From Candidatus Cloacimonadales bacterium (GTDB taxonomy: Bacteria; Cloacimonadota; Cloacimonadia; Cloacimonadales; JAFGVF01): a stretch of DNA of 64,000 nt. The stretch lies in the NCBI GenBank assembly GCA_963677495.2, contig CAXXOU010000004.1, positions 928,001 to 992,000 on the forward strand. Reading direction: 5' to 3'. Each line of letters opens with the position of its first letter. The first letter of the stretch is position 1. This document shows, one piece after another, positions 5,352-60,765 of this stretch. A program made the translations under genes and the position numbers. The notes below the pieces were generated by a model that saw nothing but the letters and a program-made list of their open reading frames with translations, did not search any database and was not told where the DNA came from.

Positions 5352-5418
5352 AATCCAAAACTCCATCCCTTTAACGGGTTTCTAACGGGAAGCTAATGGG
5401 GAGCAGATTAGTAGTTAG
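5352..5418. repeat. 11-bp-period array, TAACGGG family, copy 1
   Basis: TAA(C/T)GGG at 5372, 5383, 5394; flanks align with the IS-interrupted copy at 58320-58330/60699-60765. Confidence 0.75.
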
Positions 5419-5810
5419 CAGCGAAAAACCTATAGCTGGTAGTGATAATTATATATGATTAATTTTGGTATCCAAGACAGTGTGTTAAAGACTTTAATTT
5501 AGTTTCATTGCTCTATCATAATAATCGTGACTCAGGTGTCTGATCCTAATGAGTCTCTTGGGCCTTCCTGGGGAAAATTGATAAGAAAGTCTCCATAATT
5601 GTTGCTGCAAAGGTATTGTGAAAATTCTTTATTATGATAGGGCATAGAGGGATTTTAATTGAGTTGAAGAGTGTTTTAGTCTTCATTTAATAAGAGCGAA
5701 GTATTGTTTCAAAGTATATAAACATGAAACGAATGTAGCACTTTTAGTGCTCTTTGTGGCTTCACTTTTTTTTTAAGAATGGTATTTATACTATGAGCAC
5801 GAGTAAATCT

Positions 5811-5843
5811 AAAAAATAGGCTGATGATATATTCATCAGCCTG
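5811..5843 (-). terminator. Intrinsic terminator of the RDD gene
   Basis: AGGCTGATGA-TATAT-TCATCAGCCT stem with an adjacent A-tract (U-tract on the minus strand). Confidence 0.8.
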
Positions 5844-5873
5844 TATACCTCGGATGAGGGTTATGAAGAAGAT

Positions 5874-7688
5874 CTATAACTTGATTCTACGTTGTTCAAA
5901 TGTGTCCTCATTGAAAGGACCATCGAAGCTGATGTATCTTGTTTCAGGATCCCAGCTAAAAGGTTTATCTGTATAGAGATTAAACATATTCTTTTGTTTG
6001 CTGTTTAGGAATTTAACAATACTCTCTGCATCCATTTTATCTCGTTTAATTTTTGATACTGCTTGCATTAAACCTACTCGCACTTCAAGATCTCTTACTT
6101 TAACTGCATATCTATTGTATGTTGCAATATAGTTTTCAGATAGTATTACACCGAGTGGATTATATAAGTATTCAAAGAATGTGTACTTGTCTTCAATTTG
6201 GTCATCTAATTTATCAACCATTTCATTTGTTGGAAGTTCAGAGAAACTTGCATTCTGCTCATGCATCGTATAAGCATGGTTAACTATGTTGTTTCCTTTA
6301 AAGAAGAGAGGGTTTGCTTTAGCTATCTCTTGCCTGGAAATAGAATAATCCAATATAGCTTCAGAGCTATCAAATAGGCGAGTTATAAAGGCAGCAGCCA
6401 AATTATACTCATGCATATAACCTTTACGCATACTCCATGCTTCCTTTGAGAAAGGTTTCATGCCATCTATATAATCTAATAACCTTGTATCTACATTCTC
6501 TTCGTATGTAATAAGTTTATCAACACCTTTCTGATGAATCATCATCATTATTGTACTAACAAGCTTGAATATAAGAGAATCTGATTGTTCCATAAGATGC
6601 ATACAAACAGCTTCACCTTTTTGCATCAACTTAATAGCTTCATCTCTGTCTCCATCAATATACTCACTAACAAAGTTAAAAACATATAGACGTTCAAACA
6701 TAACCATAGGCATCATAATTGGAACAGGTGAGATCATATCAGGAATAATCTTATGCTCATACTTATCATATTCGAGGAACTTGTAGTATCTATCTCTAAG
6801 ATAACTATAGTTATTATAATGTTTTTTAATCAATTCTCTGTTCTCTTTTGCAAAGGTTATGAACTGTTCATCAGTTAGCTGATGCATTACATCTAACTCA
6901 GGATCAAGTTTATCAACAGGTGAGTTTAAAGCACTTAACTGTTCATTCACATCAATACCACTATCAGGAGCTAAGATATTGAGTATCTTTTCATTCATAT
7001 CTACAGTTCTTTTGAAACCAACCTCAAACGGGCTTTGGTCTTCCGGGATACCAAACGCACTTACTAAGTAGAATCCGTTTTCTTGAGGATACTCATCGGG
7101 TGCATAATTAATCAAAGCAGCTTCAGCTTCATTGGAAAGGGGTTCTTCATATTGCCAGATGATATTGACTGCAATGAGGATTAGAATGGAGATAAGCATG
7201 AAGACTTTACCCACTTTCCAACGGCTGTAATCTGTTTCTGTTCTTTTAGGTATATCATTATTCTTAGCTTTTCTTGAAATAATCATTGTTGAGGCCAGCT
7301 TATCTGCAAAGTTCTGTTGGCGTGAATCGAATAGTGACCATATGAATCCAATCAATAGTGAGAACCAAGATAGAAAGAACCCTGCATATCTGAGTAGTGA
7401 TATTAATAATATTGGTTTCTTACCTGTTTGCGTTTCAATCATTCTCAAGTCTAAACATAACATCCCTACTGTAGCTCCGAACACATACCACATTAAGATT
7501 GAATATACAGCTGGTATAACAAATATTGTTAACATGAAAGCAATTTGAAGCTTCCCGCCAAATAAAGCTCCCTTATTCAAGAGAAGATATACAATATAAA
7601 ATAAACCAACCCATAAAGCAATATCAATAATGAAAGCTCCTAATCGTCTTAATAATAGTAAATTCTGTTTTGTTTCAACTTGTTCCAT
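5874..7688 (-). CDS. RDD-family membrane protein fused to a large extracytoplasmic helical domain
   Basis: RRLGAFIID...GATVGM...LLRY...RQQNFADKLAST RDD motif, then another TM helix and ~420 soluble residues. Confidence 0.8.
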   Translation of the reverse strand: MEQVETKQNLLLLRRLGAFIIDIALWVGLFYIVYLLLNKGALFGGKLQIAFMLTIFVIPAVYSILMWYVFGATVGMLCLDLRMIETQTGKKPILLISLLRYAGFFLSWFSLLIGFIWSLFDSRQQNFADKLASTMIISRKAKNNDIPKRTETDYSRWKVGKVFMLISILILIAVNIIWQYEEPLSNEAEAALINYAPDEYPQENGFYLVSAFGIPEDQSPFEVGFKRTVDMNEKILNILAPDSGIDVNEQLSALNSPVDKLDPELDVMHQLTDEQFITFAKENRELIKKHYNNYSYLRDRYYKFLEYDKYEHKIIPDMISPVPIMMPMVMFERLYVFNFVSEYIDGDRDEAIKLMQKGEAVCMHLMEQSDSLIFKLVSTIMMMIHQKGVDKLITYEENVDTRLLDYIDGMKPFSKEAWSMRKGYMHEYNLAAAFITRLFDSSEAILDYSISRQEIAKANPLFFKGNNIVNHAYTMHEQNASFSELPTNEMVDKLDDQIEDKYTFFEYLYNPLGVILSENYIATYNRYAVKVRDLEVRVGLMQAVSKIKRDKMDAESIVKFLNSKQKNMFNLYTDKPFSWDPETRYISFDGPFNEDTFEQRRIKL

Positions 7689-7727
7689 AAAATACTCCTT
7701 TCGACTAATGTTTTCGTCTTATCATAC

Positions 7728-7744
7728 TGCAAGCAATGTTCCAA
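7728..7744 (-). promoter_or_regulatory. Sigma54 (-24/-12) promoter of the RDD gene
   Basis: Minus strand TTGGAACATTGCTTGCA = GG-N10-GC, 40 bp upstream of the start. Confidence 0.75.
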
Positions 7745-7797
7745 AACGCTAAGACTAAGAAACGTAAGTATATAACGTAATTATGTCTGTTTCACAG

Positions 7798-7834
7798 TGT
7801 CTCAAAATGAACATTAAGTGTTCGATAATGAACA
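7798..7834. promoter_or_regulatory. Tandem dyad enhancer sites for the adjacent NtrC-family activator
   Basis: TGTCTCAAAATGAACA (7798) and TGTTCGATAATGAACA (7819): TGT-N10-ACA, 21 bp apart. Confidence 0.6.
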
Positions 7835-7889
7835 GTTTTATCAGATTGACAACTATCTTAGTAATTCTTAGATAGCGTCAGGAGTATTT

Positions 7890-16564: not shown

Positions 16565-18016
16565 ATGACTAACTTAAAGAGAATCACATTCCTGATAGCG
16601 ATACTGATGTTAATTCAAGGAATCTGGGCTCAATACCCACTTAATGAAAAAGGACAAAGCCCATTTGTAGATGTTGTTAAGAATAGCGGAGACGCTGTAG
16701 TACAGATAAAGGTAGAGGGTGAAGTTGAAAGCTCAAGGAGTATGACTTCTGAGCTATTTCCATTCTATTTCCCTCAGCAGAGGATGCCACAATCAAGACC
16801 ATTCAAATCAATGGGTAGTGGATTTATTATTAAACATGATAAGAAAAGTAGAGAGACCTGGATTGTAACAAACAACCATGTTGTCGAGTTAGGGGAGAAA
16901 GGCACTATCACAGTTACTCTTGCTGATAAGCGAAAGTATGAAGCTGAGATAGTAGGACTAGATCCGAAAACCGACCTGGCAGTTATCAAGATAGAAGTCG
17001 ATAAAGATGAAAAGATAACATCACTTGATTGGGGAAACTCCAATGCTCTTGATATTGGTGACTGGGTGATCGCAATCGGTAATCCATTCGGAGATGTAGG
17101 TCTTGATAGAACTGTTACAGTTGGTGTTGTTTCAGCTAAAGGACGTTCAGGGTTGAACTTCGGACAAGGTTCCCCTGTTTATCAAGATTATATCCAAACC
17201 GATGCATCTATCAATCCCGGTAACAGTGGAGGTCCCCTTTTAGGGCTATCCGGTGATGTTATTGGTGTTAATGCAGCTATTACAAGTCCTAATGGTGGTA
17301 ACATAGGTATCGGATTCGCGATCCCCTCTACTATCGCTCAGAAAGTAGTTTCAGATATTATTAAAGATAAGGAAGTACACAGAGCTTATCTCGGAATTGC
17401 ACCACAAGAGATTGATGACACTCTCAAAGAGACATTTGACCTGAAAGAGGTAGCTGGTGTTCTTGTCTCACAAGTTGTTGAAGACACTCCGGCAGATAAG
17501 GCAGGACTTAAAAAAGGCGACGTTATTCTTGAAATCGATGACATGAAAGTTCCAAACGTTGCTCTTTTCCGAATCGCAATCGCACATAGACCAATCGGTG
17601 TACCTGTTACAATGAAAATTAACCGTAAAAATAAGATTAAATATTTAAAAGCAACCCTTACTAAGTACCCTGAAGATGGTGAAGCAGGATATATTGCAAA
17701 AGCAGAAGCTGAGACCAAAGAGATTGGTATTGAAGTAGTGAATACTAATAGTGAGATTGGAGAGAAGCTTAAGCTTGATGAGATGGATGGTGTTATAATT
17801 AAATCTATCAAAGATGACTCACCTGCTGAAAAAGCCGGACTCCAGGTAGGACTCGTTATCCTTGAAGTTAATGAAGAGAAAGTAAACTCAGTAAGAGATT
17901 ATGAGAAGAAGATGAAATCAATCCTCAAAAACAAAGATAAAGACAACAGAGTTGTATTGCTTTATGTTGCTGATAAGCAAGGAAACAAGAAGTTCGTTGC
18001 TGTTGAAATTGAATAG
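16565..18016 (+). CDS. degP: DegP/HtrA (Do) serine endoprotease with two PDZ domains
   Basis: TNNHVV, DLAVIK, QTDASINPGNSGGPL, two PDZ repeats, signal peptide. Confidence 0.93.
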   Translation: MTNLKRITFLIAILMLIQGIWAQYPLNEKGQSPFVDVVKNSGDAVVQIKVEGEVESSRSMTSELFPFYFPQQRMPQSRPFKSMGSGFIIKHDKKSRETWIVTNNHVVELGEKGTITVTLADKRKYEAEIVGLDPKTDLAVIKIEVDKDEKITSLDWGNSNALDIGDWVIAIGNPFGDVGLDRTVTVGVVSAKGRSGLNFGQGSPVYQDYIQTDASINPGNSGGPLLGLSGDVIGVNAAITSPNGGNIGIGFAIPSTIAQKVVSDIIKDKEVHRAYLGIAPQEIDDTLKETFDLKEVAGVLVSQVVEDTPADKAGLKKGDVILEIDDMKVPNVALFRIAIAHRPIGVPVTMKINRKNKIKYLKATLTKYPEDGEAGYIAKAEAETKEIGIEVVNTNSEIGEKLKLDEMDGVIIKSIKDDSPAEKAGLQVGLVILEVNEEKVNSVRDYEKKMKSILKNKDKDNRVVLLYVADKQGNKKFVAVEIE

Positions 18017-18034
18017 TAGATAGTGATATAATGA

Positions 18035-18068
18035 ATATAGCGGAAGTCCAAGGACTTCCGCTGTATTT
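18035..18068 (+). terminator. Intrinsic terminator after degP
   Basis: ATATAGCGGAAGTCC-AA-GGACTTCCGCTGTATTT. Confidence 0.8.
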
Positions 18069-18146
18069 GTTGCAACGTAACTCAGCAGTCTCGACTGAGA
18101 ATAACGCCCCGGAGATACGTTTTACGTAACTCAAAAAGCTGCCCTC

Positions 18147-18602
18147 TTATTCCACAATCCAATGCGTCAGATCTTCATATCGTGGAATCATAGGTAACAA
18201 TCCATTATCAACTGCTTCACTGACAGTTCTTATCGGCAAGTCCATATCAACTACTACCTCTGGTGTGACTGTCGTCAAATCTACGGGATAACCGTCTTTC
18301 TTCAATTTAAACATCATCTTCATCAAAAGAGATGCATAACTTGGAGGTCTACATTTGTGCGTATGTGATAGGTTATACCTATCTGTGTAATCTTTCAAAT
18401 CATCGATGTATTCGGGATTTAGATGTGTTTTGTAAACTGCTATGTTTTTAGAAACATCTCCCATATAATGATTATGGTCTGTGATTTCAGGCATTACAAA
18501 TTCTCTAACCCACATGATGTTTCCATCTTCATCACAGCAATAAACAAGTTTTCCATGTTTACCTGATAGTGATTTGAAAGGAAATGCTAAATAACTTTTC
18601 AT
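18147..18602 (-). CDS. Small hypothetical protein (151 aa) with an N-terminal SLSGKHGKLVY motif
   Basis: Intact ORF with a strong AAGGAG RBS; the motif recalls DUF6266-like small FCB-group proteins (from memory, unverified). Confidence 0.75.
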   Translation of the reverse strand: MKSYLAFPFKSLSGKHGKLVYCCDEDGNIMWVREFVMPEITDHNHYMGDVSKNIAVYKTHLNPEYIDDLKDYTDRYNLSHTHKCRPPSYASLLMKMMFKLKKDGYPVDLTTVTPEVVVDMDLPIRTVSEAVDNGLLPMIPRYEDLTHWIVE

Positions 18603-18726
18603 TTTGATCTCCTTTTTTTCCTTTTCACTATCCCTTGCTCACAAAACCTTTAATTTAGTCACAAACATCCAAACTTATTTTAAAAACTTACAAATATCTG
18701 TTAATTTCTGCTTCTCTGTATCTTAG

Positions 18727-18884
18727 TTTTCTCTCTTCTCTCAGCAGTAATAAGTGATTTTATACTAGTTCTAGCTTGGTCTTATGTTGGAATAATCTTA
18801 GTAATTAGGCCAAGGATAGGCCAAGTGTTTGCCAGGAATTTACCAAGTGTTTGCTAAGAATTAATGCCGAGAGAAGAGGGGAAA
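18727..18884. repeat. 11-bp-period dyad array, CTTGG/CCAAG family, enclosed in a ~25-bp inverted repeat
   Basis: CTTGG-like at 18775, 18786, 18797; CCAAG-like at 18810, 18821, 18832, 18843, 18854; outer arms TTTTCTCTCTTCTCTCAGCAGTAAT / ATTAATGCCGAGAGAAGAGGGGAAA. Confidence 0.85.
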
Positions 18885-19036
18885 GTGAAACAGATTTTCC
18901 TGTATTGATAGTGTTTAAAAGGAACAGAAGGGTATAAACATACTGTCATATTAAGTTAACTAAGACTATTACAGAATTATGTAATCTCAATAGTAATCTT
19001 TTACCGATGATACTAGTACCGTTTCGATTGAATTAC

Positions 19037-19067
19037 AAAAAAACGGGAAGCATTTCTGCTTCCCGTT
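19037..19067 (-). terminator. Intrinsic terminator
   Basis: A-tract-CGGGAAGCA-TTTC-TGCTTCCCG. Confidence 0.85.
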
Positions 19068-19085
19068 ACTATTCTATGTAATTTA

Positions 19086-19919
19086 TTAGAATAAATTGTA
19101 TGTTACAGCAACACCGAGTGTTTCTTTGTAATAGATATCTTCATCGATTTCTTTGTCATAATTGAGTTCGAAGTAGAAACCTACACCGACATACTTCATG
19201 ACTTGAATAGTAAGATCATTTTTCCACTGTACATCAAGAGCTTTCCATTCATCCATATCTTCATATAAACCATCAGCTTCTGAGTTGATTAAAGCTTGAT
19301 AGAGACGTAATTCAGATTTGAACTTTGCCATTTTTCCCATGAATACTTCAGAATATTTAGTTACAGATTCGATACCAGAGTCGATAATTGTTGTTTGTCC
19401 TCTTGTCGCAAACTGTCTTGCAGCCCAACCTAATCTGCTGTGAAACTCTCTGTTTTCAAGTTTTACAAAGTATTTTCCAATACCAACAGCTTCAGACCAA
19501 AGGTTTGTATCGAAGAGTTCATTTTCCATGTTTGTGAAATATGTTTCATCTCTAACTGAAGCAAAGAGTGTATAGTGTTTGCTTACATTAAAATCAAAAA
19601 TTGACTCTAAAACGATCTGGTCTTCTGCTTCAGTTGGTTTAAGCCATTCTTCAGTAGTCTTGTTATATGTATGTTTCTGTCCCCATTTCAACTCAGCAGT
19701 ATTAGTCCAATATACTAATTCTGAAAGTGGTCTTTCAGCTGACATATTGACTCTTGCTACCCAATCGATTGCACTTTCTTCATCTCCATTCCAATTGTCA
19801 CTATAATAGCTTTGGTTAAGTAATAGATTTAGGTCACCTTTCACAACCCAAGGTGTTTGTGCGAGCAACATAGATAAACCCATAATTAAAATAAATAAAA
19901 CGGATAGTTTCTTAAACAT
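19086..19919 (-). CDS. Outer-membrane beta-barrel protein (DUF3078-like)
   Basis: Signal peptide, LLLNQSYYSDNWNG motif, amphipathic strands, terminal VTYNLF. Confidence 0.75.
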   Translation of the reverse strand: MFKKLSVLFILIMGLSMLLAQTPWVVKGDLNLLLNQSYYSDNWNGDEESAIDWVARVNMSAERPLSELVYWTNTAELKWGQKHTYNKTTEEWLKPTEAEDQIVLESIFDFNVSKHYTLFASVRDETYFTNMENELFDTNLWSEAVGIGKYFVKLENREFHSRLGWAARQFATRGQTTIIDSGIESVTKYSEVFMGKMAKFKSELRLYQALINSEADGLYEDMDEWKALDVQWKNDLTIQVMKYVGVGFYFELNYDKEIDEDIYYKETLGVAVTYNLF

Positions 19920-19952
19920 ATCTCCTCCTTTTTGTTCAGGTAAATATTATCC

Positions 19953-19993
19953 AAAAAAAAGAAGAGGGCAAGAAATATTTCATTCTTGCCCTT
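19953..19993 (-). terminator. Probable terminator of lysS
   Basis: AGGGCAAGAA...TTCTTGCCCT stem with a nearby A-tract. Confidence 0.65.
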
Positions 19994-20016
19994 AATATTT
20001 GTTAAGTTATGATTAA

Positions 20017-21513
20017 CTATTCCGGTTTCATTGTAGGGAAGAGGATAACCTCTTTTATTGATTCATTTTCAGTTAAAAGCATAACTAGACGGTCGATACC
20101 GATACCAAGTCCACCTGTTGGAGGCATGCCATATTCCATCGCTTCCAAGAAGTCTTCATCTATAACGTTTGCTTCTAAATCTCCAAGCTCTCTTAGCTTA
20201 GATTGTGACTCAAGACGTTCTCTTTGATCAATCGGGTCATTCAATTCTGTGAATGCATTGGCAAATTCGTAACCGGCAATAAAGAGTTCAAAACGCTCTG
20301 TGAACATTGGGTCACCCGGTTTTGCTTTTGCCAGAGGAGAGATCTCTTTCGGATGATCAATCACAAAGGTAGGTTGAATAAGCTTATGCTCTGCAAAATG
20401 TTCAAAGATTTCAGCGATAAGTTTTCCTGAACCTGCACCTTTAGGAATCTCGATGTTCTTCTCTTTGCAAAAAGCAGATAATTCTTCAAAACTATATCCA
20501 CTTACATCAACACCTGCATGCTCTTCAATGAGCTCAAGCATTGTAGCTCTACGGAAAGGAGTTTTAAGAGAAACCTCGTGTCCTGCATAAGTTACATCTG
20601 TGTTGCCATTAACTTTTGCAGCTCCTTGACTGAAGATATCTTCAGTAATCTTCATCATGCCTTCAAGGTTTGAATATGCTTCATAGAGCTCAATAAGAGT
20701 AAACTCAGGATTATGAGTTCTATCCATACCTTCGTTGCGGAAATTCTTTCCAATCTCATAGACTTTCTCATAACCACCGATGATGAGTCTTTTTAAGTAA
20801 AGCTCAGTAGCGATTCTGAGATAAAGGTCAGTTCCAAGTGTATTATGATGAGTGATGAATGGTCTGGCATTAGCGCCACCATACAAAGGCTGAAGAGTAG
20901 GTGTTTCAACTTCAATATATCCGATTCCATCAAGGTAGGTTCTTACAAATGATACGATTCTGGAACGTTTAACGAAAGTTTCTTTGTTCTCAGGATTAAG
21001 AAGTAGGTCTAAATAACGCTTTCTATATCTTAGCTCAATATCATTGAACTCGTCATAACGCACAGCTTTTCCATCCACTATTTTCTCTTTAACAGTTGGA
21101 ATAGGGCGGATGTTCTTACTTAGCATAGTAACTTTACTAACAAGAATTGAGTACTGACCACGTTGAGTCATGAAAGCGGTTCCGTTTATCTGTACGAAAT
21201 CACTAAGGTCACAGAGTTTGAAAACTTCATAGTTCTCATCACCAACTCCGTCTTTCTTAACAAACAGCTGAATCTTACCAGTCATGTCTGTTAATTGAGC
21301 AAATCCAACTTTGCCCTGACGACGCATAGCGGTGAGACGACCGGTTACGATAACAGCCTCTTCGTTCTTTAAGTACTCCTCTTCATTATCAAGTAAATCC
21401 TTGATGTAATGAGTCCTTTCACAACTTGTAGGATATGGGTTGATTCCCAAATCTCTAATCTTTTGCAATTTCTGCTTTTTGAGACCAATAACCTGTTTTA
21501 CATTCTGTTCCAT
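20017..21513 (-). CDS. lysS: Lysyl-tRNA synthetase (class II)
   Basis: RYRKRYLDL, YGGANARPF, LRIATELYLKRL, FRNEG..THNPEF, YGMPPTGGLGIGIDRL. Confidence 0.98.
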   Translation of the reverse strand: MEQNVKQVIGLKKQKLQKIRDLGINPYPTSCERTHYIKDLLDNEEEYLKNEEAVIVTGRLTAMRRQGKVGFAQLTDMTGKIQLFVKKDGVGDENYEVFKLCDLSDFVQINGTAFMTQRGQYSILVSKVTMLSKNIRPIPTVKEKIVDGKAVRYDEFNDIELRYRKRYLDLLLNPENKETFVKRSRIVSFVRTYLDGIGYIEVETPTLQPLYGGANARPFITHHNTLGTDLYLRIATELYLKRLIIGGYEKVYEIGKNFRNEGMDRTHNPEFTLIELYEAYSNLEGMMKITEDIFSQGAAKVNGNTDVTYAGHEVSLKTPFRRATMLELIEEHAGVDVSGYSFEELSAFCKEKNIEIPKGAGSGKLIAEIFEHFAEHKLIQPTFVIDHPKEISPLAKAKPGDPMFTERFELFIAGYEFANAFTELNDPIDQRERLESQSKLRELGDLEANVIDEDFLEAMEYGMPPTGGLGIGIDRLVMLLTENESIKEVILFPTMKPE

Positions 21514-21921
21514 CTTAGCTCCACATTGTTAGTTAAATTAGTTTGCGGTTATCTGTCGTGTATCTGTGGGGGATAGTATATGACAGTGATAACCGCAATT
21601 AAAATCTTTATTACATGACAATTTGTGAATCACATCTTCGATGTCAATAAAGATTTCTATTGAGTACACAATATACGTAGGTGCATCTAGTCACTCAACT
21701 CTTAAAGGAGTTATTCAGAGTGAAGTGTGCGAACGAAGAAGGACTTCTTTAATATCCGAAACTGAAAAGCGAAAGTTCTTGATGCGAGAACGAAGTTGAC
21801 TTCGAGTTATCGGAATTAGCGATTCACACTTCGTTGAGAATCACTTCTTCCTTGGTCATCTTGCAATTGCATCTACGCAGTTGATGCATTCCATATTTAA
21901 ACCATCTACCAAATCGTAGTC

Positions 21922-22239
21922 ATCCCACTATTTTCCCACTGTGCATGCACTGTGCACCCAGTGAAACAGTGGGTTGGCAGTGCCTTCACAGTGGGGCCAC
22001 AGTGCGTACACCGTGCGTTGGTAAAAAGTGCAGTGAAAGGCAGTAAAAAGGGCAAAAAATGTAGCTAAGTCATTGCAAAAGGCACTGAGTATGTTATTCT
22101 AAAGCTGTCGCAATAGCGACCGAAGGGAGATGGGCGAATAGCGAAAATGGCTATAATCAATTTCGTGACAAGACGCACCAACGCAGATGGTGCACTCCAT
22201 AGTTGTAAGTCATTGTAAAATGCACTGCGTATGTCATCC
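21922..22239. repeat. Composite repeat, copy 1: CACTG/CAGTG 11-bp dyad array plus two ~30-bp repeats and one spacer
   Basis: Homologous to 47917-48385; CACT at 21926/21937/21948, CAGTG at 21967/21978/21989/22000; TAAGTCATTG..GCACTG.GTATGT at 22066 and 22206. Confidence 0.9.
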
Positions 22240-23011: not shown

Positions 23012-23101
23012 ATTCCCCTCTCGTAGAGGGGTACCGTTGAAACCGGTGGGTGTTTCTATTCCCCTCTTGTAGAGGGGTGCCGACTTGTCGGTGGGGTGTT
23101 T
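23012..23101 (+). repeat. Two tandem ~44-bp double-hairpin repeats (DUF559-associated REP-like family)
   Basis: ATTCCCCTCTnGTAGAGGGGTrCCG-n-CGGTGGG(G)TGTT at 23012 and 23058. Confidence 0.9.
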
Positions 23102-23118
23102 TCCCTAAAGAGTCGATA

Positions 23119-23520
23119 ATGAATAATAAATATAAAAAATACAAGAAGCTACCGTATAATCCTAAGTTGAAAGAGAAAGCAAAAGCTCTTCGGAAAGCAG
23201 GCAATCTTTCAGAAGCACTTCTTTGGCTTCCGCTAAAAAAGAAGAATTTGCTAGGACTAGATTTTCACAGGCAGAAGATTATCGGGAACTATATTGTTGA
23301 TTTTTATTGTCCTGAATTACAATTAGTTGTTGAAATAGACGGTGTTAGTCACGATTTTAAGATTGAATATGATGAACGTAGAGAAAAGTATCTAGAGTCT
23401 TTAGATTTGACTATAATACATTATAGTGATATAGATGTTAAGAGGAATATGAGTGGAGTTATTGACGATTTGATTGATAGATGCGAGAAGTTGATGTGGA
23501 GAGGTGCGCGGTTTGAGTAA
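23119..23520 (+). CDS. DUF559 / Vsr-like PD-(D/E)xK endonuclease domain protein
   Basis: YNPKLKEKAKALRK..SEALLW..FHRQKIIGNYIVDFYCPELQLVVEIDGVSH..DERR; the longer ORF start lies inside the repeat. Confidence 0.9.
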   Translation: MNNKYKKYKKLPYNPKLKEKAKALRKAGNLSEALLWLPLKKKNLLGLDFHRQKIIGNYIVDFYCPELQLVVEIDGVSHDFKIEYDERREKYLESLDLTIIHYSDIDVKRNMSGVIDDLIDRCEKLMWRGARFE

Positions 23521-23701: not shown

Positions 23702-23745
23702 ATTCCCCTCTTGTAGAGGGGTGCCGTTGGAAACGGTGGGGTGTT
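23702..23745 (+). repeat. DUF559-associated repeat copy
   Basis: ATTCCCCTCTTGTAGAGGGGTGCCGTTGGAAACGGTGGGGTGTT. Confidence 0.9.
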
Positions 23746-23774
23746 CTCCCCAAAAGAGTACAAAAGGAGGAACA

Positions 23775-25610
23775 ATGCCATTTTGTAGCAATTGTGGCAA
23801 CAAAATAGAGGAACATGACAAGTTCTGTCCAAATTGTGGTACTCCTAATCGGAGTAGTAAAGACACTGCGAGCACTAAACCTGCTCAAGGTACAATCCTA
23901 GAACATGGTAGCTACGGACAATCCAATAGTGAACTACCAAAGGGTTTTGAGATTGAAGGTCGATATAGAATAGAACAAAAGCTTGGTAAAGGTGGATTTG
24001 GTACTGTTTATAAGGCATGGGACAGCAATGTAGATGAATACAAAGCCCTAAAGGTAATTGATAATATATTTTACGATGATAAAAGGGTTATTACCTCTCT
24101 CAAGAAAGAAACTAAGTTACTTCTTAAACTTAATTCAAAACATGTTGTGAGAATATTTGATGTACATCTTCAAGGTGATGTTAAGTTCATTGATATGGAG
24201 TATATCGATGGGGGCGACTTAGTAGATTTGATGTTATCTTATGAGGATGAGAAGGTTCCTGAAGAGCGAGTTATTGAGATAGCTAAACAGATATGCCAAG
24301 GTATGATCGATATCCATGCTCATAACATTATCCACAAAGACCTGAAACCACAGAATGTTATACTTACTAAATCCGGTCAGATAAAGATAATGGACTTCGG
24401 TATCTCAGAGACTTTCAGAAGTAGTATGAGTCGTATGAAAGAGACATCAAAGAGCGGTACACCGGCATATATGAGTCCTGAACAACTACTTGGAAAAGAT
24501 GTAGGCAAAGAATCAGATATATGGAGCTTTGGGGTTATGTTGTATGAATTGCTATCAGGTAAACAGCTTTATACAGGTAGCTCCTTGAATGAAGTTTATT
24601 TTCAGATTCAGAATAGGGAGTATACTAAGATTGATCCCGTTAGCTCAAAACTGAATTTTGTTATTGAAAAATGCTTAGTAAAAAAACATATTAACCGATA
24701 TAGATTATTCGAAGATGTACTGAATCAATTAACTAAGAAAAAAATAAATAAACAATTAATTATTACAGAAGATGTTGAGTATAACGAATTAGCGAAAGAG
24801 CACAAAACAAATATTACTAATGAGATTATTGAAACTAAAATTAACGAATTGAGTAATCATGACCATATTTCTAAAACTGGTATCGAAATGATTAGAGTTA
24901 AAAGCGGGGAATTTATTATGGGTAGTAACGAAATAGAAGCGAAACCTAAAGAAATACCTAAGCACAAAGTAACAATAGATAGCTTCTATATTGGGAAATA
25001 TCCAGTATCACAACAACTATGGAAAGGAATCATGGGTAACAATCCTTCAGAATATATAGGAGAAAGAAAACCTGTAGAAAATGTTAGTTGGTATGATGCT
25101 GTAGAATTTTGCAATAAACTTAGTGATAAAGAAGGATTGGAAAAATGCTATATTGGTTCTGTTGGTAATATCAGATGCAACTGGAACGCGAATGGATACA
25201 GATTGCCTACTGAAGCTGAATGGGAATTTTCAGCTAGAGGGGGAGGATCAAGTGAATTATATAAATATTCCGGTAGTAACAATATTGATGATGTATGTGT
25301 ATATTTATCAAAAAATGGAATTGGATCGAAAGAAATTGGTACAAAAATGCCAAACGAATTAGGAATATATGATATGAGTGGTAATGTTTGGGAATGGTGC
25401 TGGGATCTGTATGGAGAATATATTTCTAAAACTGTTTCAAATCCAACTGGAAGCACTGAAGGGACACATCGTGTATATAGAGGTGGTTGTTGGTATAGCT
25501 ATAGCTCTCATTGTCGATGTGCATTTCGTAGCAAAAACCATCCCATGGTTAAAAATGCGTTCATTGGTTTTCGAATTGCTCGTTCAATAATGAATTCTCA
25601 TGAGGACTAA
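23775..25610 (+). CDS. Zinc-ribbon + Hanks-type Ser/Thr kinase + FGE-sulfatase (SUMF1/C-lectin fold) protein 1
   Basis: CSNC..CPNC; GKGGFGTVY, ALK, HKDLKPQN, DFG, GTPAYMSPE; RLPTEAEWE, GIYDMSGNVWEW, RGG.W, GFR; ATG after an AGGAGG RBS. Confidence 0.93.
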   Translation: MPFCSNCGNKIEEHDKFCPNCGTPNRSSKDTASTKPAQGTILEHGSYGQSNSELPKGFEIEGRYRIEQKLGKGGFGTVYKAWDSNVDEYKALKVIDNIFYDDKRVITSLKKETKLLLKLNSKHVVRIFDVHLQGDVKFIDMEYIDGGDLVDLMLSYEDEKVPEERVIEIAKQICQGMIDIHAHNIIHKDLKPQNVILTKSGQIKIMDFGISETFRSSMSRMKETSKSGTPAYMSPEQLLGKDVGKESDIWSFGVMLYELLSGKQLYTGSSLNEVYFQIQNREYTKIDPVSSKLNFVIEKCLVKKHINRYRLFEDVLNQLTKKKINKQLIITEDVEYNELAKEHKTNITNEIIETKINELSNHDHISKTGIEMIRVKSGEFIMGSNEIEAKPKEIPKHKVTIDSFYIGKYPVSQQLWKGIMGNNPSEYIGERKPVENVSWYDAVEFCNKLSDKEGLEKCYIGSVGNIRCNWNANGYRLPTEAEWEFSARGGGSSELYKYSGSNNIDDVCVYLSKNGIGSKEIGTKMPNELGIYDMSGNVWEWCWDLYGEYISKTVSNPTGSTEGTHRVYRGGCWYSYSSHCRCAFRSKNHPMVKNAFIGFRIARSIMNSHED

Positions 25611-27368: not shown

Positions 27369-27527
27369 GTAGGGCACGCAGCTTGCTTTTGCCCACAGCT
27401 CGATGAGCTGTATTCATGATGACTGAAATTTATGAGATATACTAAAGAAGTTTAGGAAATAATATAAATTAGCTTCTTTGGCAGAGCTTAGCTATCGCTA
27501 AGCAGACAAGCTGGCAGCATGTCCTAC
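27369..27527. repeat. GTAG-ended REPIN/MITE-like unit, copy 1
   Basis: Left GTAGGGCACGCAGCTTGC.., right GAGCTTAGCTATCGCTAAG.AGACAAGCTGGCAGCATGTCCTAC; both ends recur at 32071-32264, right end also at 57461. Confidence 0.85.
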
Positions 27528-27546
27528 TAGTAAAAGTCTGGTTGTG

Positions 27547-27634
27547 AACCACGAAATAACCACGGGCAAACCACGCCCATACTACGCGAGCCGTGGTTAA
27601 CCCCTGGTTTACACGTGGTCAACCCGTGGTAAAG
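27547..27634. repeat. 11-bp-period dyad array, CCACG/CGTGG family, copy 1
   Basis: CCACG-like at 27549, 27560, 27571, 27582; CGTGG-like at 27592, 27603, 27614, 27625. Confidence 0.9.
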
Positions 27635-27665
27635 TATGACAGATGTGTTGGAAATTGGTGAGGGG

Positions 27666-27709
27666 AAACACCCCGCCGTTGACACGGCACCCCTCTACAA
27701 GAGGGGAAT
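27666..27709 (-). repeat. Inverted DUF559-associated repeat copy
   Basis: AAACACCCCGCCGTTGACACGGCACCCCTCTACAAGAGGGGAAT. Confidence 0.9.
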
Positions 27710-32074: not shown

Positions 32075-32264
32075 GGCACGCAGCTTGCTTGCCCAAAGCT
32101 CGATAGAGTTATTTATTCCCCTCTAGCAGAGGGGTGCCGTGTAAACGGCGGGGTGTTGAAACTTTGTATTATATGAAAGTTTAAATTGCAAAAGAGAACA
32201 GATAAACAACTGTCAGTGGCGGAGCTTAGCTATCGCTAAGAGACAAGCTGGCAGCATGTCCTAC
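32071..32264. repeat. GTAG-ended unit, copy 2, with a DUF559-associated repeat nested at 32115-32157
   Basis: Same ends as 27369-27527; internal ATTCCCCTCTAGCAGAGGGGTGCCGTGTAAACGGCGGGGTGTT. Confidence 0.85.
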
Positions 32265-32276
32265 AAAGGAGGAATA

Positions 32277-38155: not shown

Positions 38156-38346
38156 AATCTCCTCTATTTGGTCATTGTTTTAGTAATGGAACAAATTACA
38201 GAAATATTGTCAATTAGTTTTAAAGATTGAATCAGATGTAAATACTGACAAACCGACTAGCCTAATATCACTACTAGTTTTTCTTATGTGTGAGATGTAA
38301 TTTGCAGATAAAAGTGTGTTAGCTGTCAGGTTCAAATGTTATATTT

Positions 38347-38428
38347 AACCACGGATGAACCACGGGTATTCCACGCCCAAACCACGCGAGTCGTGGTTAA
38401 CCCGCGGTTTACCCGTGGTCAAGTATGA
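38347..38428. repeat. 11-bp-period dyad array, CCACG/CGTGG family, copy 2
   Basis: CCACG at 38349, 38360, 38371, 38382; CGTGG-like at 38392, 38403, 38414. Confidence 0.9.
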
Positions 38429-38525
38429 AAGAAAAGTAAAACAAAGGAGCGGATGGTATTCACTTAATGCTCCATAGAAACTCTAAGTGAATCTATTCTA
38501 TTAATTAGAAGATCTGATGGTCTAT

Positions 38526-47560: not shown

Positions 47561-47916
47561 TCTCATCTCCTTTTCGAGTTTTATTTGTTGTTTATATATA
47601 TCAAAAAATCTTCCATACTTTCGTTTATGACAGCGAAATTATAAACCGTAAAGTGTCAATTATTTTCCGTGTTTTCTGTGATGATTTTCACAATAATCTT
47701 AACAATTATCTTTAACACTTAAGCAACAATCCTATAAAATACTATATGTCATCTTGTTATCAGGTTTTGAAAAGTCATTAAATGGCTATCAATCAACTAT
47801 GAATTTGTTTTTCACTATAGCTTCTGCTTAAATCTTATTCTAACTTCAATCATAAAGATACCATCATATGCTTGTTCATTGTTCTCCCAATCTAAACTAT
47901 CTAACAAAACCGTGTT

Positions 47917-48385
47917 ATCCCACTGTTTTCCCACTGTGCACGCACTGTGCACCCAGTGAAACAGTGGGTTGGCAGTGCCTTCACAGTGGGGACACAGTGC
48001 AAACACAGTGCGTTGATAGAATGTGCAGTAAAAGAGAGCTAAAAGGACAATAAACGCGGCTAAGTTATTGTAAATGGCACTGTGTATATCTCTTTCGGAC
48101 TTGCTCCGCAGCGAAGCGTGGGGCGAGAACGAAAACTTAGGAAAAGAGACTTCGAAGTACATTTCAGGAAGTCCGTTGCTTTATCAGGCCGACAAACTCC
48201 CTGAAATGCCGTAAGTTGTTGCAAATCGCGCTGTGTATGTATTCGGATATTGTTGCAATAGTGACCAAAGGGAGATAGGTGAATAGTGAAAAGTAGCAAT
48301 AATCCAATTCGTGACAAGACGCACCAACGCAGATGGTGCACTCCATAGTTGTAAGTTATTGCAAATCGCACTGCAAATGTCATCC
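47917..48385. repeat. Composite repeat, copy 2: CACTG/CAGTG 11-bp dyad array plus three ~30-bp repeats and two spacers
   Basis: CACTG at 47921/47932/47943; CAGTG at 47962/47973/47984/47995/48006; repeats at 48061, 48212, 48352. Confidence 0.9.
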
Positions 48386-57431: not shown

Positions 57432-57459
57432 AAAAGCAGTGGTCAGCCACTGCTTTTTT
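57432..57459 (+). terminator. Intrinsic terminator of the apbE-ftsY run
   Basis: AAAAGCAGTGG-TCAG-CCACTGCTTTTTT. Confidence 0.88.
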
Positions 57460-57460
57460 A

Positions 57461-57547: not shown

Positions 57548-57598
57548 CTTCCTTCGAGGTAACCATTTGCAAGGTTTTCAACCATTCCAAAGGTACAG

Positions 57599-57723
57599 AT
57601 TTTAGTGTTTCAGATATCAGCCCTTGGGCAGAACATGAATAGCTATGGGTGCAAACATTATAATATTTTAGTGTTTCAGATATCAGCCCTTTGGGCTGAA
57701 CATGAATAGCTATGGGTGCAAAC
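57599..57723. repeat. ~58-bp near-perfect direct repeat, 66-bp period, containing palindromes
   Basis: ATTTTAGTGTTTCAGATATCAGCCCTT(T)GGGC(A/T)GAACATGAATAGCTATGGGTGCAAAC at 57599 and 57665. Confidence 0.9.
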
Positions 57724-58143
57724 CCATAGAAATGAGACATAAACAAACCCCAGCCCTTAGGGCTGAATAATTGCTTTATACACACATCTTATATTTTTTA
57801 TACGTGGAGACACCTAGGGGCTTAAGAAAGTTTATGATAGAGCATTTAACCACCAGATGAATCTGGTGGCTCTGGGAAGCATTTGCATATCAGTTTTAAC
57901 AGCTATTTCACTCTCACTCCTCTGCCATAATTACTATTCATTAGATATCTCAATCTTATCAAATTCGAGTCTAAAACCTGTTAAAGAATAACTACATTTC
58001 AAAAGGGATTCAACAGGTGTCTCATTCGAGATGGATGATAATTGTAGCAGAGCAGTGACGGTTTCATGATTTTGAGATTCATTTAAAAGGTTTCATATTT
58101 TATTCTGCTGGATCTCTGCTGAAAGTCTGATATCCACACCTAC

Positions 58144-58224
58144 TTTACTCCCGAGCCTCCCGGGGGCCTCTCGGGGATAGGCGGGGGAGGGCCCCGAGTG
58201 GTCCCCGTGTGCGACGGGAGAAAA
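58144..58224. repeat. GC-rich 11-bp-period dyad array, CGGGG/CCCCG family
   Basis: CGGGG at 58161, 58172, (GGGGG 58183); CCCCG at 58192, 58203; outer IR TTTACTCCCG/CGGGAGAAAA. Confidence 0.65.
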
Positions 58225-58428
58225 TACCAGAATTCCATCAGACATTCCTCAAACGATTTCATACTATTATTCACTATCTTACTATTATTCTTAAATACCT
58301 TAACTCCCAATTTGCACCTAATCCAATTGCTGTCAATGGCAGTGAGAAATGGTACACGATGGCAGTGAAAAGTGGTACAAAACTGCCAACCTTTAAAAAT
58401 GACTACTTCAAGACAGTTTGGAGTAGGT

Positions 58429-59904
58429 ATGATTGGAGTAGAAGTGTATCATTCAATAAAAACTATGCATAAGCAAGGGCATAGTCAGCGTAAGATCGCA
58501 GAGGAGTTGTCTCTATCAAAGACAACAGTAGGTAAATACATAAATATGACACTTGATGAGTTCATGGAACTAATAAACAATAGCATTCGTGAAAGCAGTT
58601 TTGCCATATGTGAGCAATATGTCCGCGAAAGGCTTAGCAAATATCCACGATTAAGAGCTAGTGTACTATATTTAGAAGTTAAGAAAAAGTTCCCTGAGAT
58701 AAAAGCAAAAGACAGAGCTTTCCGAGATTTTGTTCGTAAGCTAAAGCAGACTTATCCTGTCGATAAATACCGTAATTATGCAGTAATCGAGACGGCTCCC
58801 GGTGTTCAGGTTCAAGTTGATCCAGGTGAGATGAAAGTAGTTTTGGGTAATAAACGTCAAAGAGTTTATTTTATAGTTTTTGTGCTTTCCCACTCGCGTC
58901 AAAGCTATGTCCATTGGAGCACAACACCATATAACACATCAAGGTTTATTGAAGCTCATCGTGAAGCTTTTATCTATTTTGAAGGTATCCCTTCAGAGTG
59001 TGTTTACGACCAGACAAAGCTTGTAGTAATACAGGAACGCTATCGGGAAGTAATCTTAAATAATCAGTTCCATCAGTTTGCAGCAAAAACGGGCTTTCAT
59101 CCTCATGTATGCGAAGGCTATGATCCACAAAGCAAGGGTAAAGTAGAGCGTAATGTCTCAGAAGTAAAGCATGGCTTTATGTATGGCAAAGAGTTCAAAG
59201 ACCTGGCAGACCTGCGTTCACGCGGACTTGAGTGGCTTTTACACTTTAACGGCAGAACCCATGGCACAACCCGTAAAGTACCATCAGAAGTATGGCAAGA
59301 AGAGAGGTTAAAGCTAAAAGATATTCCAGAGTTTATCTTCACTTTAGAAGTTCGTAATGCAGATAAAACAGGCTTAATCTCGTATGAGGGTAATAAGTAC
59401 TCTGTTCCATTAGAGTATCAGCGAAAACAGGTATATGTGCAAAAAGAAAAGAGCACTTTAGTGGTGATGGATATTTATACAAGAAAGGAAATCTGCCAAC
59501 ATGAGCTATGCACAGAAAAAGGCAAAATCATCAAAAACACTAATCATTATCGGGATTTTACGGTAGTGCTACAAGAGCTTATTGAGCGAGTAAAGGATGA
59601 GATGAGTGAATATATCCAAGGAGAAGAACTAATCCAGAGGCTTGTTAATGATAACCCTAAAATAGCAAGGGATCAGTTGAGAGCCTTAAGCAAGTTTAAG
59701 CGTAACTATGAAACAGATGTATGGGAGTCAGTGCTTCCTGAGGTAATGACTCTTTCGCATGTAAAGGCAACAGCCATAGAGAAGCTTCTGAATGCAAAAG
59801 TAAGACAAATGAAGCTAAATGAATTATCAGAATCAGAACCACAACAAGACTCAGAGAGTTCATTAATAGAGCGCTCATTAGATGACTACATGAAGGTGTT
59901 ATAA
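58429..59904 (+). CDS. istA: IS21 transposase
   Basis: N-terminal HTH (SQRKIAEELSLSKTTVGKY), ETAPGVQVQVD, VYDQ, PQSKGKVER, HGTT, YSVP; start taken at MIGVEVY. Confidence 0.95.
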   Translation: MIGVEVYHSIKTMHKQGHSQRKIAEELSLSKTTVGKYINMTLDEFMELINNSIRESSFAICEQYVRERLSKYPRLRASVLYLEVKKKFPEIKAKDRAFRDFVRKLKQTYPVDKYRNYAVIETAPGVQVQVDPGEMKVVLGNKRQRVYFIVFVLSHSRQSYVHWSTTPYNTSRFIEAHREAFIYFEGIPSECVYDQTKLVVIQERYREVILNNQFHQFAAKTGFHPHVCEGYDPQSKGKVERNVSEVKHGFMYGKEFKDLADLRSRGLEWLLHFNGRTHGTTRKVPSEVWQEERLKLKDIPEFIFTLEVRNADKTGLISYEGNKYSVPLEYQRKQVYVQKEKSTLVVMDIYTRKEICQHELCTEKGKIIKNTNHYRDFTVVLQELIERVKDEMSEYIQGEELIQRLVNDNPKIARDQLRALSKFKRNYETDVWESVLPEVMTLSHVKATAIEKLLNAKVRQMKLNELSESEPQQDSESSLIERSLDDYMKVL

Positions 59905-59905
59905 G

Positions 59906-60637
59906 ATGATAGAGATAACTAAAACATACATCAAAAGGGCTCGTTGTACTCATATTTTGAATACTCTTGAAAGTGCAGTTTTAGAAGCAGAGAAACAGAA
60001 TATGACTTATCTGGAGTTCGTACATTATCTATTTGAAAAAGAGAACTCAGGAAGGAATCAAACCAATATCAACAGAAGACTTAAACAGGCTCACATCCCG
60101 GTAATAAAGACCTTTGATGAGTTCGACTATGCTTATCAACAAGTAATAACCAAAAGACAAGTAAAGGAGTGGAAGAACTTTGTCTGGCTGGAGCAGAGGA
60201 GGAATATAATTTTAATGGGACCTCCGGGAGTAGGTAAGACTCATGTTGCAACAGCACTCAGTTATGAAGCAATAAAGGCAGGATATAAGGTGGTGTTTTA
60301 TAATCTGAACAACCTTATCGAAGAACTTGTACTAGCTGAAGCAGATAACAACATAGATAAATATCTAAGCAATATAGCCAAGAATGATCTGATAGTTATA
60401 GATGAGATGGGGTATCTTCCTCTCCAGACAAAGGCAGCTAATCTGTTCTTTAGACTCATCCATCTCTTATACGAATTTAGATCAGTAATCATAACATCGA
60501 ATAGGTTGTTTAATGAATGGGGAGCTATTTTTAACGACAATGTGATAGCAACTGCTATTCTTGATAGATTACTCCATCACTCACAACCAATTACAATGCT
60601 CGGAGACAGCTTTAGACTAAGGAATTTTCAAAAATGA
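59906..60637 (+). CDS. istB: IS21 helper ATPase
   Basis: GPPGVGKTH, LIVIDEMGYLP, IITSN, AILDRLLHH, GDSFR. Confidence 0.96.
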   Translation: MIEITKTYIKRARCTHILNTLESAVLEAEKQNMTYLEFVHYLFEKENSGRNQTNINRRLKQAHIPVIKTFDEFDYAYQQVITKRQVKEWKNFVWLEQRRNIILMGPPGVGKTHVATALSYEAIKAGYKVVFYNLNNLIEELVLAEADNNIDKYLSNIAKNDLIVIDEMGYLPLQTKAANLFFRLIHLLYEFRSVIITSNRLFNEWGAIFNDNVIATAILDRLLHHSQPITMLGDSFRLRNFQK

Positions 60638-60698
60638 AGACTGTACCATTTTTAAATGCCAAACTGTACCAATTTAAAATGCCATTGACACCAATTGC

Positions 60699-60765
60699 CA
60701 TCCATCATAACGAGTTTCTAACGGGGAGCTAACGGGAAGCTAACGGGGAGCGATTGAGTAGTAAG
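60699..60765. repeat. 11-bp-period array, TAACGGG family, copy 2 (right part; left flank cut by IS21)
   Basis: TAACG(A/G)G at 60708, 60719, 60730, 60741. Confidence 0.85.

Follow-up and report, generated by a model that had tools for sequence, protein, structure and literature searches.

About 300 sites in the Cloacimonadota genome studied here (G000) carry arrays of short cores repeated every 11 bp, and they belong to 14 sequence families. In most of these families, a home copy lies shortly upstream of a gene encoding a class I protein, a member of a family of small proteins of approximately 150 aa, and the remaining copies are gene-less. Sites of all families pooled are spaced far more evenly along the chromosome than chance. 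We propose that the arrays are DNA addresses of the class I family, which would spread from them and exclude neighboring arrays. We give this reading, with its presumed binding, spreading, and copying route, somewhat less than an even chance.

Core matching in the 64-kb window, the whole stretch of DNA that was analyzed, recovered all eight arrays of the original prediction in exact 11-bp phase (Table 1), allowing at most one mismatch per 5-bp core and two per 7-mer. The layout described for them also stands, with left cores followed by reverse-complement cores in six arrays and a single arm in both TAACGGG arrays. Two points needed revision. The linkers, described as variable, are indeed not identical but less free than supposed, the units being degenerate 11-mers. 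All eight arrays are present, but those at 58161 and 60708 form one composite site split by an IS21 element and lie 208 bp apart after both IS genes are subtracted.

Table 1. Arrays and associated features in the 64-kb window (window coordinates).
Feature	Coordinates	Strand	Details
TAACGGG-family array	5347..5425		TAACGGG x3 at 5372, one arm
Class I gene, home gene of CCAAG family, candidate reader	18147..18602	-	151 aa, uncharacterized
Sigma-70-like consensus match, between CCAAG array and gene	18677..18704	-	10/12, not above chance here
CCAAG-family element, home copy	18745..18867		123 bp between terminal inverted repeats, 3+5 cores: CTTGG x3 at 18775, then CCAAG x5 (18810-18854)
CACTG-family array	21890..22040		CACTG x4 at 21926, then CAGTG x5
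CCACG-family array	27522..27645		CCACG x4 at 27549, then CGTGG x4
CCACG-family array	38323..38444		4+3 cores, at 38349
CACTG-family array	47890..48037		4+5 cores, at 47921
CGGGG-family array	58079..58212		CGGGG x3 at 58161, then CCCCG x2
IS21 between two arrays of composite site	58372..60690	+	istA 58372-59904, istB 59906-60637, right end 60690
TAACGGG-family array	60683..60778		TAACGGG x4 at 60708, one arm

The 11-bp period was compared with chance. In the ORF-free DNA of the window (6,881 bp), the detector gives seven loci at period 11 and zero or one at periods 7-10 and 12-15, and 200 dinucleotide shuffles gave a mean of 0.06 loci (maximum 1); the array at 47921 was masked in this control because it overlaps a spurious 115-aa ORF. 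The arrays had been said not to match CRISPR, which agrees with the repeat unit of 11 bp, and an Rfam scan of the window for known RNA families gave no match at gathering score. A short-read contig matches positions 16600-20728 with zero differences, an agreement that is not independent, as all four runs came from one sample.

Genome-wide, period 11 yields 238 intergenic loci, whereas periods 9, 10, 12, and 13 yield 8, 10, 2, and 0. In another genome, G014, 41 loci occur at period 9, exceeding its period-11 count. Among the families represented in the window, CACTG has 67 sites in G000 (home gene at C4:1447767), CCAAG 44, TAACGGG 26, and CGGGG eight, the home copy of the last being located 42 bp upstream of a class I gene that is truncated (C4:469605); the home gene of the CCACG family is at C4:453465. 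For the TAACGGG family and two small families, no home gene was found in G000.

The arrays are clearly copied units, each family being an element of about 90-190 bp whose copies are 80-92% identical over their whole length. Element lengths are fixed and differ in 11-bp steps, and doublets appear to be co-copied. Terminal inverted repeats are clear in CCAAG and CGGGA and weak or not seen in CCACG, CACTG, and CCCTA. The suggestion that the arrays are ends of a mobile element is thus right about copying and otherwise unproven, since neither target-site duplications nor an associated transposase or integrase were found. In three families, the longest direct repeat was 5.2-6.0 bp in own flanks and 5.5-5.6 bp in mismatched flanks, a comparison too coarse to resolve very short duplications, and no integrase or transposase recurred beside genes of the small-protein family in a nearest-neighbor survey.

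REP, REPIN, and BIME sequences with their RAYTs, and MITEs, are likewise dispersed intergenic palindromic families that have one cognate gene each and are targeted by insertion sequences. The arrays resemble them in dispersal and palindromy, and all six IS3 copies lie within 700 bp of an array. They differ in their 11-bp internal phase, their lack of target-site duplication, and their spacing across families, and the home gene has no Pfam match and is not a recognized HUH (Y1) transposase. A 144-aa gene beside CCAAG arrays was discarded as a candidate reader, as its sequence and ends read as an IS3-type OrfA. A role for the elements as hairpins of RNA or single-stranded DNA (A-form, 11 bp per turn), serving as REP/REPIN-like substrates, is extremely improbable. 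They are imperfect palindromes in a genome rich in REP-like repeats and RAYT-like genes, and the outer flanks of two families show a slight excess of pairing (1.8-1.9 SD). However, the arms of CCAAG and CACTG pair with their own partners no better than expected (999 vs 987+-11 and 895 vs 895+-5, respectively), no clear case of compensatory change between arms was seen, only 36-60% of positions pair, TAACGGG copies are one-armed, and Rfam gave no match. Seven genes of this genome are presumably RAYT-like, and one of them has an array within 600 bp.

In G000, an array lies at most 1.5 kb upstream of 14 of the 15 intact class I genes. The same holds for 263 of the 578 control genes whose upstream DNA is open (permutation p=0.0001) and for none of the seven genes for class II, a paralogous group of small proteins. 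These home arrays cover ten families, and six class I genes have rare ones (p=0.001). A fixed promoter beside the home arrays is unsupported: sigma-70-like matches number 7 vs 4 of 38, by a consensus that may not be the lineage's own. A direct-repeat motif of 19-22 bp occurs upstream of class I and class II genes.

Two further families of the order show the same arrangement with different core words. Across genomes, a period-11 array lies upstream of 40 of 93 genes of the small-protein family, about six of these matches being palindromic words and probably false, against 9, 3, 0, and 2 at other periods; downstream, only 4 of 90 have one. In family f4, arrays precede 16 of 37 class I genes and 2 of 32 class II genes and follow none of 35. 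On a quick tree, arrays map to class I clades and to none of 25 class II clade rows. The dispersed array families of G013 and G014 are those in front of their own class I genes, and samples in which no class I gene was seen are poor in arrays (two weak matches in 200 kb of G004, one in 200 kb of G031, one in 100 kb of G005, and none in 100 kb of G024). Of 27 homologs from f7, f11, f12, and G005, one is preceded by a strong array, and G027, which has 34 matches, shows only two weak arrays in 200 kb.

Array and protein also vary together. Array-unit similarity is 0.37-0.44 below 60% protein identity and 0.76 above 80%, and proteins 50-80% identical often have different cores; no column of the proteins stood out clearly when specificity residues were sought. 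The median pI of class I proteins is basic (9.3, with 77 of 89 above 8), G014 C1:1678030 and G013 C1:2413097 being basic examples, and that of class II proteins is less so (6.1); the window's own class I protein is acidic (pI 5.8, net charge 0 over residues 1-60). The original prediction had the arrays as loading sites for a polymerizing protein with a separate specificity for each family. That idea gains a candidate in the 150-aa paralogous family, as a home array stands before nearly every class I gene, and binding and polymerization by it are our inference. Adjacency and co-variation would also be expected from plain co-inheritance.

Searches of Pfam (27 members), PHROGs, and PDB sequences returned no significant match for the 150-aa family, and Foldseek found none in PDB or BFVD at E<=0.001. 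In a VIA structural comparison, ribbon-helix-helix proteins fill the top rows at Z 2.7-3.7, the best being 3.7. The class I protein has a confident predicted fold without clear structural match, which does not by itself demonstrate a new fold. For the N-terminal half, small viral proteins (0.89) and DUF6266 (0.86) are among the nearest clusters in Atlas, and both are leads only. The link to DUF6266 (PF19781), which we had presumed, was not confirmed, there being no Pfam match in 27 members; a genome search for DUF6266 gave no match, but neither did its control.

Across all families in G000, the coefficient of variation (CV) of spacing is 0.59, compared with an expected 0.85+-0.05; 21 gaps are shorter than 5 kb (65 expected) and eight longer than 30 kb (21 expected). 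Other dispersed repeats in G000 do not have such evenness (CV 1.05 vs 0.99). Few gaps fall under about 5 kb in G000 and under about 9 kb in two other genomes. Among the matches listed, at most the best 40 candidates per family, G014 has none of 93 gaps below 8 kb (18-26 expected) and G013 one of 126 below 9 kb (22-29 expected); the CV of G014, among the same matches, was not significant against a family-rotation null (p=0.10). The G014 count excludes a fourth query that matched mostly flanking repeats and had one copy 547 bp from another array. Exclusion is not absolute, since 38 different-family pairs lie within 800 bp in G000, many recurring with the same spacing as if co-copied. GC skew of the contigs resembles that of long ordinary replichores. 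Even spacing across families is compatible with a spreading protein.

Such spacing might also come from selfish, non-autonomous elements, in which the array would be an iteron-like origin or end of an island comprising class I, array, primase-helicase, cargo, partner, and class II; some recombinase would copy it and target immunity would space the copies, with class I as a linked passenger or helper. Gap distributions resemble filling with an exclusion zone, and fixed lengths, terminal inverted repeats in some families, and doublets fit copying of this kind. Window arrays sit at synteny breaks relative to G001, one junction having a CACTG array in G001 and a CCAAG array in the window genome, but array-free breaks are common too. 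A strict DnaA box is present in 34 of 34 CCCTA-family copies. In two of eight larger contexts (L225, L226) a BT4734-like/PriCT-2/DUF3987 primase-helicase is divergent from class I, with an array-like stretch between the two genes in L225 and none detected in L226. The PF08800 primase adjoins class I in some f4 islands; searches of G000, G001, G013, and G014 did not find it, a control genome being positive. Given also the lack of target-site duplications and of a recurring integrase or transposase, and because immunity across unrelated cores would still require a common protein coat, we consider this explanation unlikely.

A class I and a class II gene often flank 5-12 kb of variable cargo, and three of the contexts scanned contain restriction-modification genes. 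It is conceivable that the two are coat proteins for gene transfer and that an array seeds a particle around approximately 10 kb of DNA, array-bearing segments being transferred more often, which would spread the arrays and even them out. Relative to each other, G000 and G001 show shuffled blocks of 1-9 kb, and the Atlas clusters include the small viral proteins already mentioned as a lead. Against this, the proteins have no significant match to viral structures or PHROGs, two scans of IMG/VR viral contigs, for which a single protein of each class served as query, gave no relative, and no lysis, export, or terminase gene recurred beside the family genes in the nearest-neighbor survey. Drive alone would not obviously yield a nearly empty zone below 9 kb either, and we regard packaging as very unlikely.

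In many loci, a partner protein of about 200 aa is encoded beside a gene of class I or class II. Its model (pLDDT 75) has a predicted OmpR/PhoB-like winged helix with a coiled-coil insert, and residues 14-211 match OmpR-type DNA-binding domains (Z 8.1-8.5, rmsd 2.6-3.2, 85-96 aligned); the matches (BaeR, CadC, GlnR, CssR) reappear as non-significant Foldseek rows, and Z near 8 is frequent for helical models. PMC5930380 describes SARP and OmpR-PhoB operators as short cores (heptamers for OmpR-type domains) that recur each 11 bp, with cooperative binding along a single face of the DNA. The arrays share this phase and might accordingly be activator sites read by the partner, their arms serving two divergent promoters. 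We find this rather improbable, as G000 has 7 partner genes for 14 array families and G014 has 2 for at least 3, so that the partners do not number one per core word. Partners also track class II, being present in the array-poor G004 and G005. Unlike such operators, whole elements and flanks are copied here, with opposed arms and with copies between convergent genes (29 of 111 such gaps have arrays), and regulons leave copied flanks and even spacing unexplained.

A close parallel to a class I protein with its array is ParR/parC of ParMRC plasmid partition (R1, C. perfringens pCW3-like), where a small-protein gene also lies beside a short-repeat array. PMC9426499 describes at least ten ParR/parC families, three of which were tested and bind their cognate site only, with 11-bp repeats in R1 parC and 8-bp repeats 3 bp apart in parC-B. 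Here, no ParM, ParA, or TubZ-type NTPase was found among recurring nearest neighbors, in island maps, or in Pfam scans, the comparison above does not establish class I as ribbon-helix-helix, and the sites are chromosomal, evenly spaced, and in the hundreds.

Opposed arrays are known elsewhere too: work by Rozgaja in 2011 is said to describe two oppositely oriented low-affinity DnaA arrays at 11-bp phase in E. coli oriC, guiding progressive binding. The CCCTA family has DnaA boxes, but the array cores themselves are of other sequence. No DnaA box lies within 60 bp in four of the window's five families; in CCAAG, 4 of 30 copies have one. DnaA was rejected as the general reader. ParB spreading from parS and transposition target immunity likewise begin with nucleation at a site, and their influence extends over about 10 kb. 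They differ in having one sequence family, compared with many here, and neither a ParB-type domain nor a target-selecting ATPase is linked with the arrays.

Under the class I address reading, each paralogue would recognize the 5-7 bp cores of one family, its own, with one unit to each turn of the helix, and by binding the home array would also control its own gene. The two opposed arms would seed a nucleoprotein filament spreading both ways for several kilobases, and the coated domain would block a new array of any family or make it useless. Copying is assumed to be by a host or island recombinase, and the chromosome would end up tiled with domains of about 10-15 kb. As a wider and distinctly doubtful proposal, this may be a chromosome-tiling system of fast-diversifying small proteins, each reading its own helically phased address, one per about 10-15 kb, with coated domains that mark DNA as self, partition the nucleoid, or seed the packaging of segments of about 10 kb. 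With regard to self-marking, class I and II genes bracket restriction-modification cargo.

What is new here is the home copy of an array family upstream of a class I paralogue and the keeping apart of different families. A literature search confined to sources other than subscription journals found no description of such arrays, and no bacterial repeat class is known to us whose unrelated sequence families keep a common exclusion distance on the chromosome. The unusual evenness of the gene-less copies points to an undescribed way of marking or organizing bacterial DNA. If the address reading is true, it would add a new layer of chromosome organization or self-marking in a widespread uncultured phylum, and would provide many dozens of protein-address pairs from nature, all on a single 150-aa scaffold of unrecognized fold, useful for studies of specificity evolution and as orthogonal DNA-binding parts. 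Chromosome tiling, if true, would be the bacterial counterpart of centromere-type turnover, new pairs of protein and address displacing old ones.

All eight intergenic arrays with an 11-bp period that the original prediction had placed in the window were recovered in exact 11-bp phase, and the opposed arms it described were seen in six of the eight. The window corresponds to C4:928001-992000 of a 3.4-Mb, four-contig genome (G000), and proteins related to those it encodes are named Cloacimonadota. ORF-free window DNA held seven loci at period 11; each neighbouring period gave 0-1, and 200 shuffles averaged 0.06. Across the genome, exact 5-mer triples recurred with period 11 at 177 loci and with the harmonic period of 22 at 78, every other period from 6 to 25 giving at most 13. 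Most array loci (238 of 286) are intergenic, and a search of the window for known RNA families in Rfam returned no matches. Among gaps of at least 150 bp, arrays occupy tandem (115/489), divergent (80/206) and convergent (29/111) ones alike, so a role as promoter operators alone does not account for them.

The arrays are copied elements. Core clustering gave 14 multi-copy families and 14 singletons, and adding degenerate copies brought the sites in G000 to 304, led by CACTG (n = 67), CCACG (n = 48, sub-families combined in one cluster), CCAAG (n = 44), CCCTA (n = 36) and TAACGGG (n = 26), with two in the smallest family. Copies of the families present in the window are 80-92% identical, and element lengths in G000 are fixed, differing by 11-bp steps. 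The CCAAG and CGGGA families have terminal inverted repeats; target-site duplications were looked for in three array families and none were seen. No clear case of compensatory change between arms was found, and we consider it very improbable that the arrays act as hairpins. In G000, 38 pairs of neighbouring arrays are less than 800 bp apart, each pair being of two different families, and several pairs recur at identical spacing, as though co-copied; one such pair in the window is separated by an IS21 insertion.

Other elements were observed near the arrays. Of 17 IS21 copies in G000, 6 have an array no more than 700 bp away, and an IS3-type element (144-aa first ORF, from which the assignment was read) adjoins a CCAAG array in 6/6 copies, a strict target preference. 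A strict DnaA box is present in 34/34 CCCTA copies, and one class I lineage (G000 CCCTA and loci L003, L030, L032, L041 and L042) has an inverted pair of DnaA-box-like 9-mers at the array centre or end. Relative to the related genome G001, window gene order is shuffled in 1-9 kb blocks of 70-85% DNA identity, and the placeable arrays sit at block borders. GC-rich palindromic repeats like the one in the window occur beside DUF559 nuclease genes. Judged from translations, two of three kinase-like genes end in an FGE-sulfatase-like C-terminal domain and a PP2C-like phosphatase gene adjoins; these kinase-like and phosphatase genes had no matches in G001.

Features of the window, related loci and array elements
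Feature	Position	Remarks
Class I gene	window 18147-18602	138 bp from CCAAG site
Direct repeat and TATA-GAGG box	window 18626-18675	weak example
DUF559 nuclease gene	window 23050-23520	
Three paralogous Ser/Thr kinase-like genes	window 23721-27332 and 32256-33665	read from translations
GC-rich palindromic repeat	window 27665-27697	separate from 11-bp arrays
Close array pair	window 58161 and 60708	
Class II paralogue	G000 C4:992928	928 bp past window end; upstream array absent
IS3-type elements beside CCAAG arrays	G000 C4:221018, C2:235206	examples
Primase-helicase islands	L225:5351-7849, L226:5809-8262, L229:873-3332	
CCAAG element		123 bp; variants 112, 134
CGGGA element		106 bp; variants 95, 73
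CCACG elements		91, 80, 69 bp

The protein family of the window class I gene has 24 members in G000. Within the phylum, 121 of 202 genomes contain a match, and the family also matches 458 clusters formed at 50% identity. An array-less subgroup, first spotted by eye, was placed by a quick tree as a 25-row clade with zero arrays (class II; SH-aLRT 85, and 100 for its G000 subclade), and arrays fall on the remaining clades (class I). An array lies within 1.5 kb upstream of 14/15 intact class I genes in G000 vs 263/578 control genes (p = 0.0001) and of 0/7 class II genes; a less sensitive earlier array map gave 12/15 class I genes (p = 0.004). These home copies span 10 array families, and that of an eleventh, CGGGG, precedes a class I gene that is truncated. 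For TAACGGG and two small families G000 holds no home gene, and words similar to theirs are found upstream of class I genes in G002. Most class I proteins are basic, the window copy being an acidic exception. The class I model predicts a three-stranded sheet at residues 14-34 followed by five helices (pLDDT 96, pTM 0.81), with no clear match in the sequence or structure libraries searched. Class I proteins are probably the readers of the arrays.

In G000 and relatives, 40 of 93 family genes (a few rows being gene fragments) have an upstream period-11 array, about six of them doubtful palindromes, against 9, 3, 0 and 2 at periods 9, 10, 12 and 13; downstream arrays occur in 4/90. In a new gene set drawn from family f4, arrays lie upstream of 16/37 class I and 2/32 class II genes, classes being assigned by an N-terminal pattern that misfiles a few proteins, including one of the two class II positives, and downstream of 0/35. 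Sampling 400 kb of each genome found 20 arrays (G014) and 19 (G013), most of which belong to families that precede class I genes of the same genome; three families number at least about 40, 13 and at least about 40 copies in G014, and four number at least 39, at least 40, at least 40 and 7 in G013. Weak hits per 100-200 kb sampled were two in G004, one each in G005 and G031 and none in G024; the family copies inspected in G004 and G005 belong to class II or are divergent, whereas no family match was obtained in G031 or G024. A strong upstream array in only 1/27 homologues from f7, f11, f12 and G005 counts against a general link. Array similarity follows protein identity only above ~60% (Mantel rho 0.17, 52 pairs), and co-inheritance alone would also produce such tracking. 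Within part of the order, gene and array are generally linked. Separately, longer homologues of 170-200 aa are strongly expanded in G027 (34 matches) and G021 (22 matches), their arrays being weak or absent, and the G014 sample (L153-L172) contains another repeat class, with a 9-bp period (41 intergenic loci in 400 kb).

Arrays are evenly spaced along the G000 chromosome, at a median distance of 11 kb. The spacing CV of occupied gaps is 0.59 vs 0.85±0.05 after shuffling occupancy between size-matched gaps, with 21 distances below 5 kb (65 expected) and 8 above 30 kb (21 expected). Rotating each family independently leaves this contrast in place (0.59 vs 0.86), so the even spacing acts across families; other dispersed repeats of G000 lack the effect (1.05 vs 0.99). 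Array maps of G014 and G013 are incomplete, and their uniform and rotation nulls were built without gene maps. Among the matches listed for three G014 families, the smallest of 93 gaps is 9,216 bp, and none is below 8 kb where 26 (uniform) or 18 (rotation) were expected; the CV did not differ significantly from rotation (p = 0.10). Among those listed for G013, 1 of 126 gaps is below 9 kb (29 or 22 expected; CV 0.52). Along an unbroken 320-kb stretch of G014, neighbouring arrays lie 9-35 kb from each other, except for two pairs separated by less than 600 bp. Such spacing could reflect selfish, origin-derived elements with target immunity, which we regard as unlikely, or packaging signals, which seem improbable.

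Five class I genes in G000 are oriented away from a class II gene, with ~5-9 kb of cargo in between, and related islands contain restriction-modification genes and a ~200-aa partner protein with modest-scoring likeness to OmpR-type winged helices. This fold is known to read 11-bp repeats (PMC5930380), which makes the partner a real rival reader, with the arrays as its operators. Against this, partner copy number (seven in G000, two in G014, one each in G004, G005 and G006) tracks class II, and we give this alternative a rather low probability, below that of selfish elements and above that of packaging signals. A distinct motif consists of a TATA-GAGG box that in many cases follows a direct repeat spaced at 19-22 bp. 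It occurs upstream of 30/90 class I, 28/62 class II and 56/578 control genes, and may be a promoter, perhaps for an alternative sigma factor, or the partner's site. Islands of some f4 genomes include a BT4734-like primase-helicase divergent from class I; BT4734-like proteins are listed among AEP primase families (PMC5862659), and searches for that family found none in G000, G001, G013 or G014. Three islands with BT4734-like/PriCT-2/DUF3987 primase-helicases have class I and class II genes at their borders and no visible integrase, possibly representing an undescribed type of mobile element.

The arrays resemble a multi-family ParR/parC code on top of REP-like dispersal. However, no partition NTPase was found to recur beside the family genes, the home gene is not a RAYT, and neither hairpin covariation nor duplication at element ends is seen; they thus belong to neither class. 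A literature search found no description of such arrays, and we rate the pattern as categorically new and offer the mechanism as a proposal. Each class I paralogue would bind its own cores one helical turn apart, as ParR binds parC repeats (PMC9426499), with opposed arms starting a filament in both directions. The resulting coat would span several kb and exclude new arrays of any family, either by blocking insertion or because close pairs would be useless or harmful. We favour this model as a whole at slightly less than even confidence; new paralogue-array pairs would then spread over older ones.
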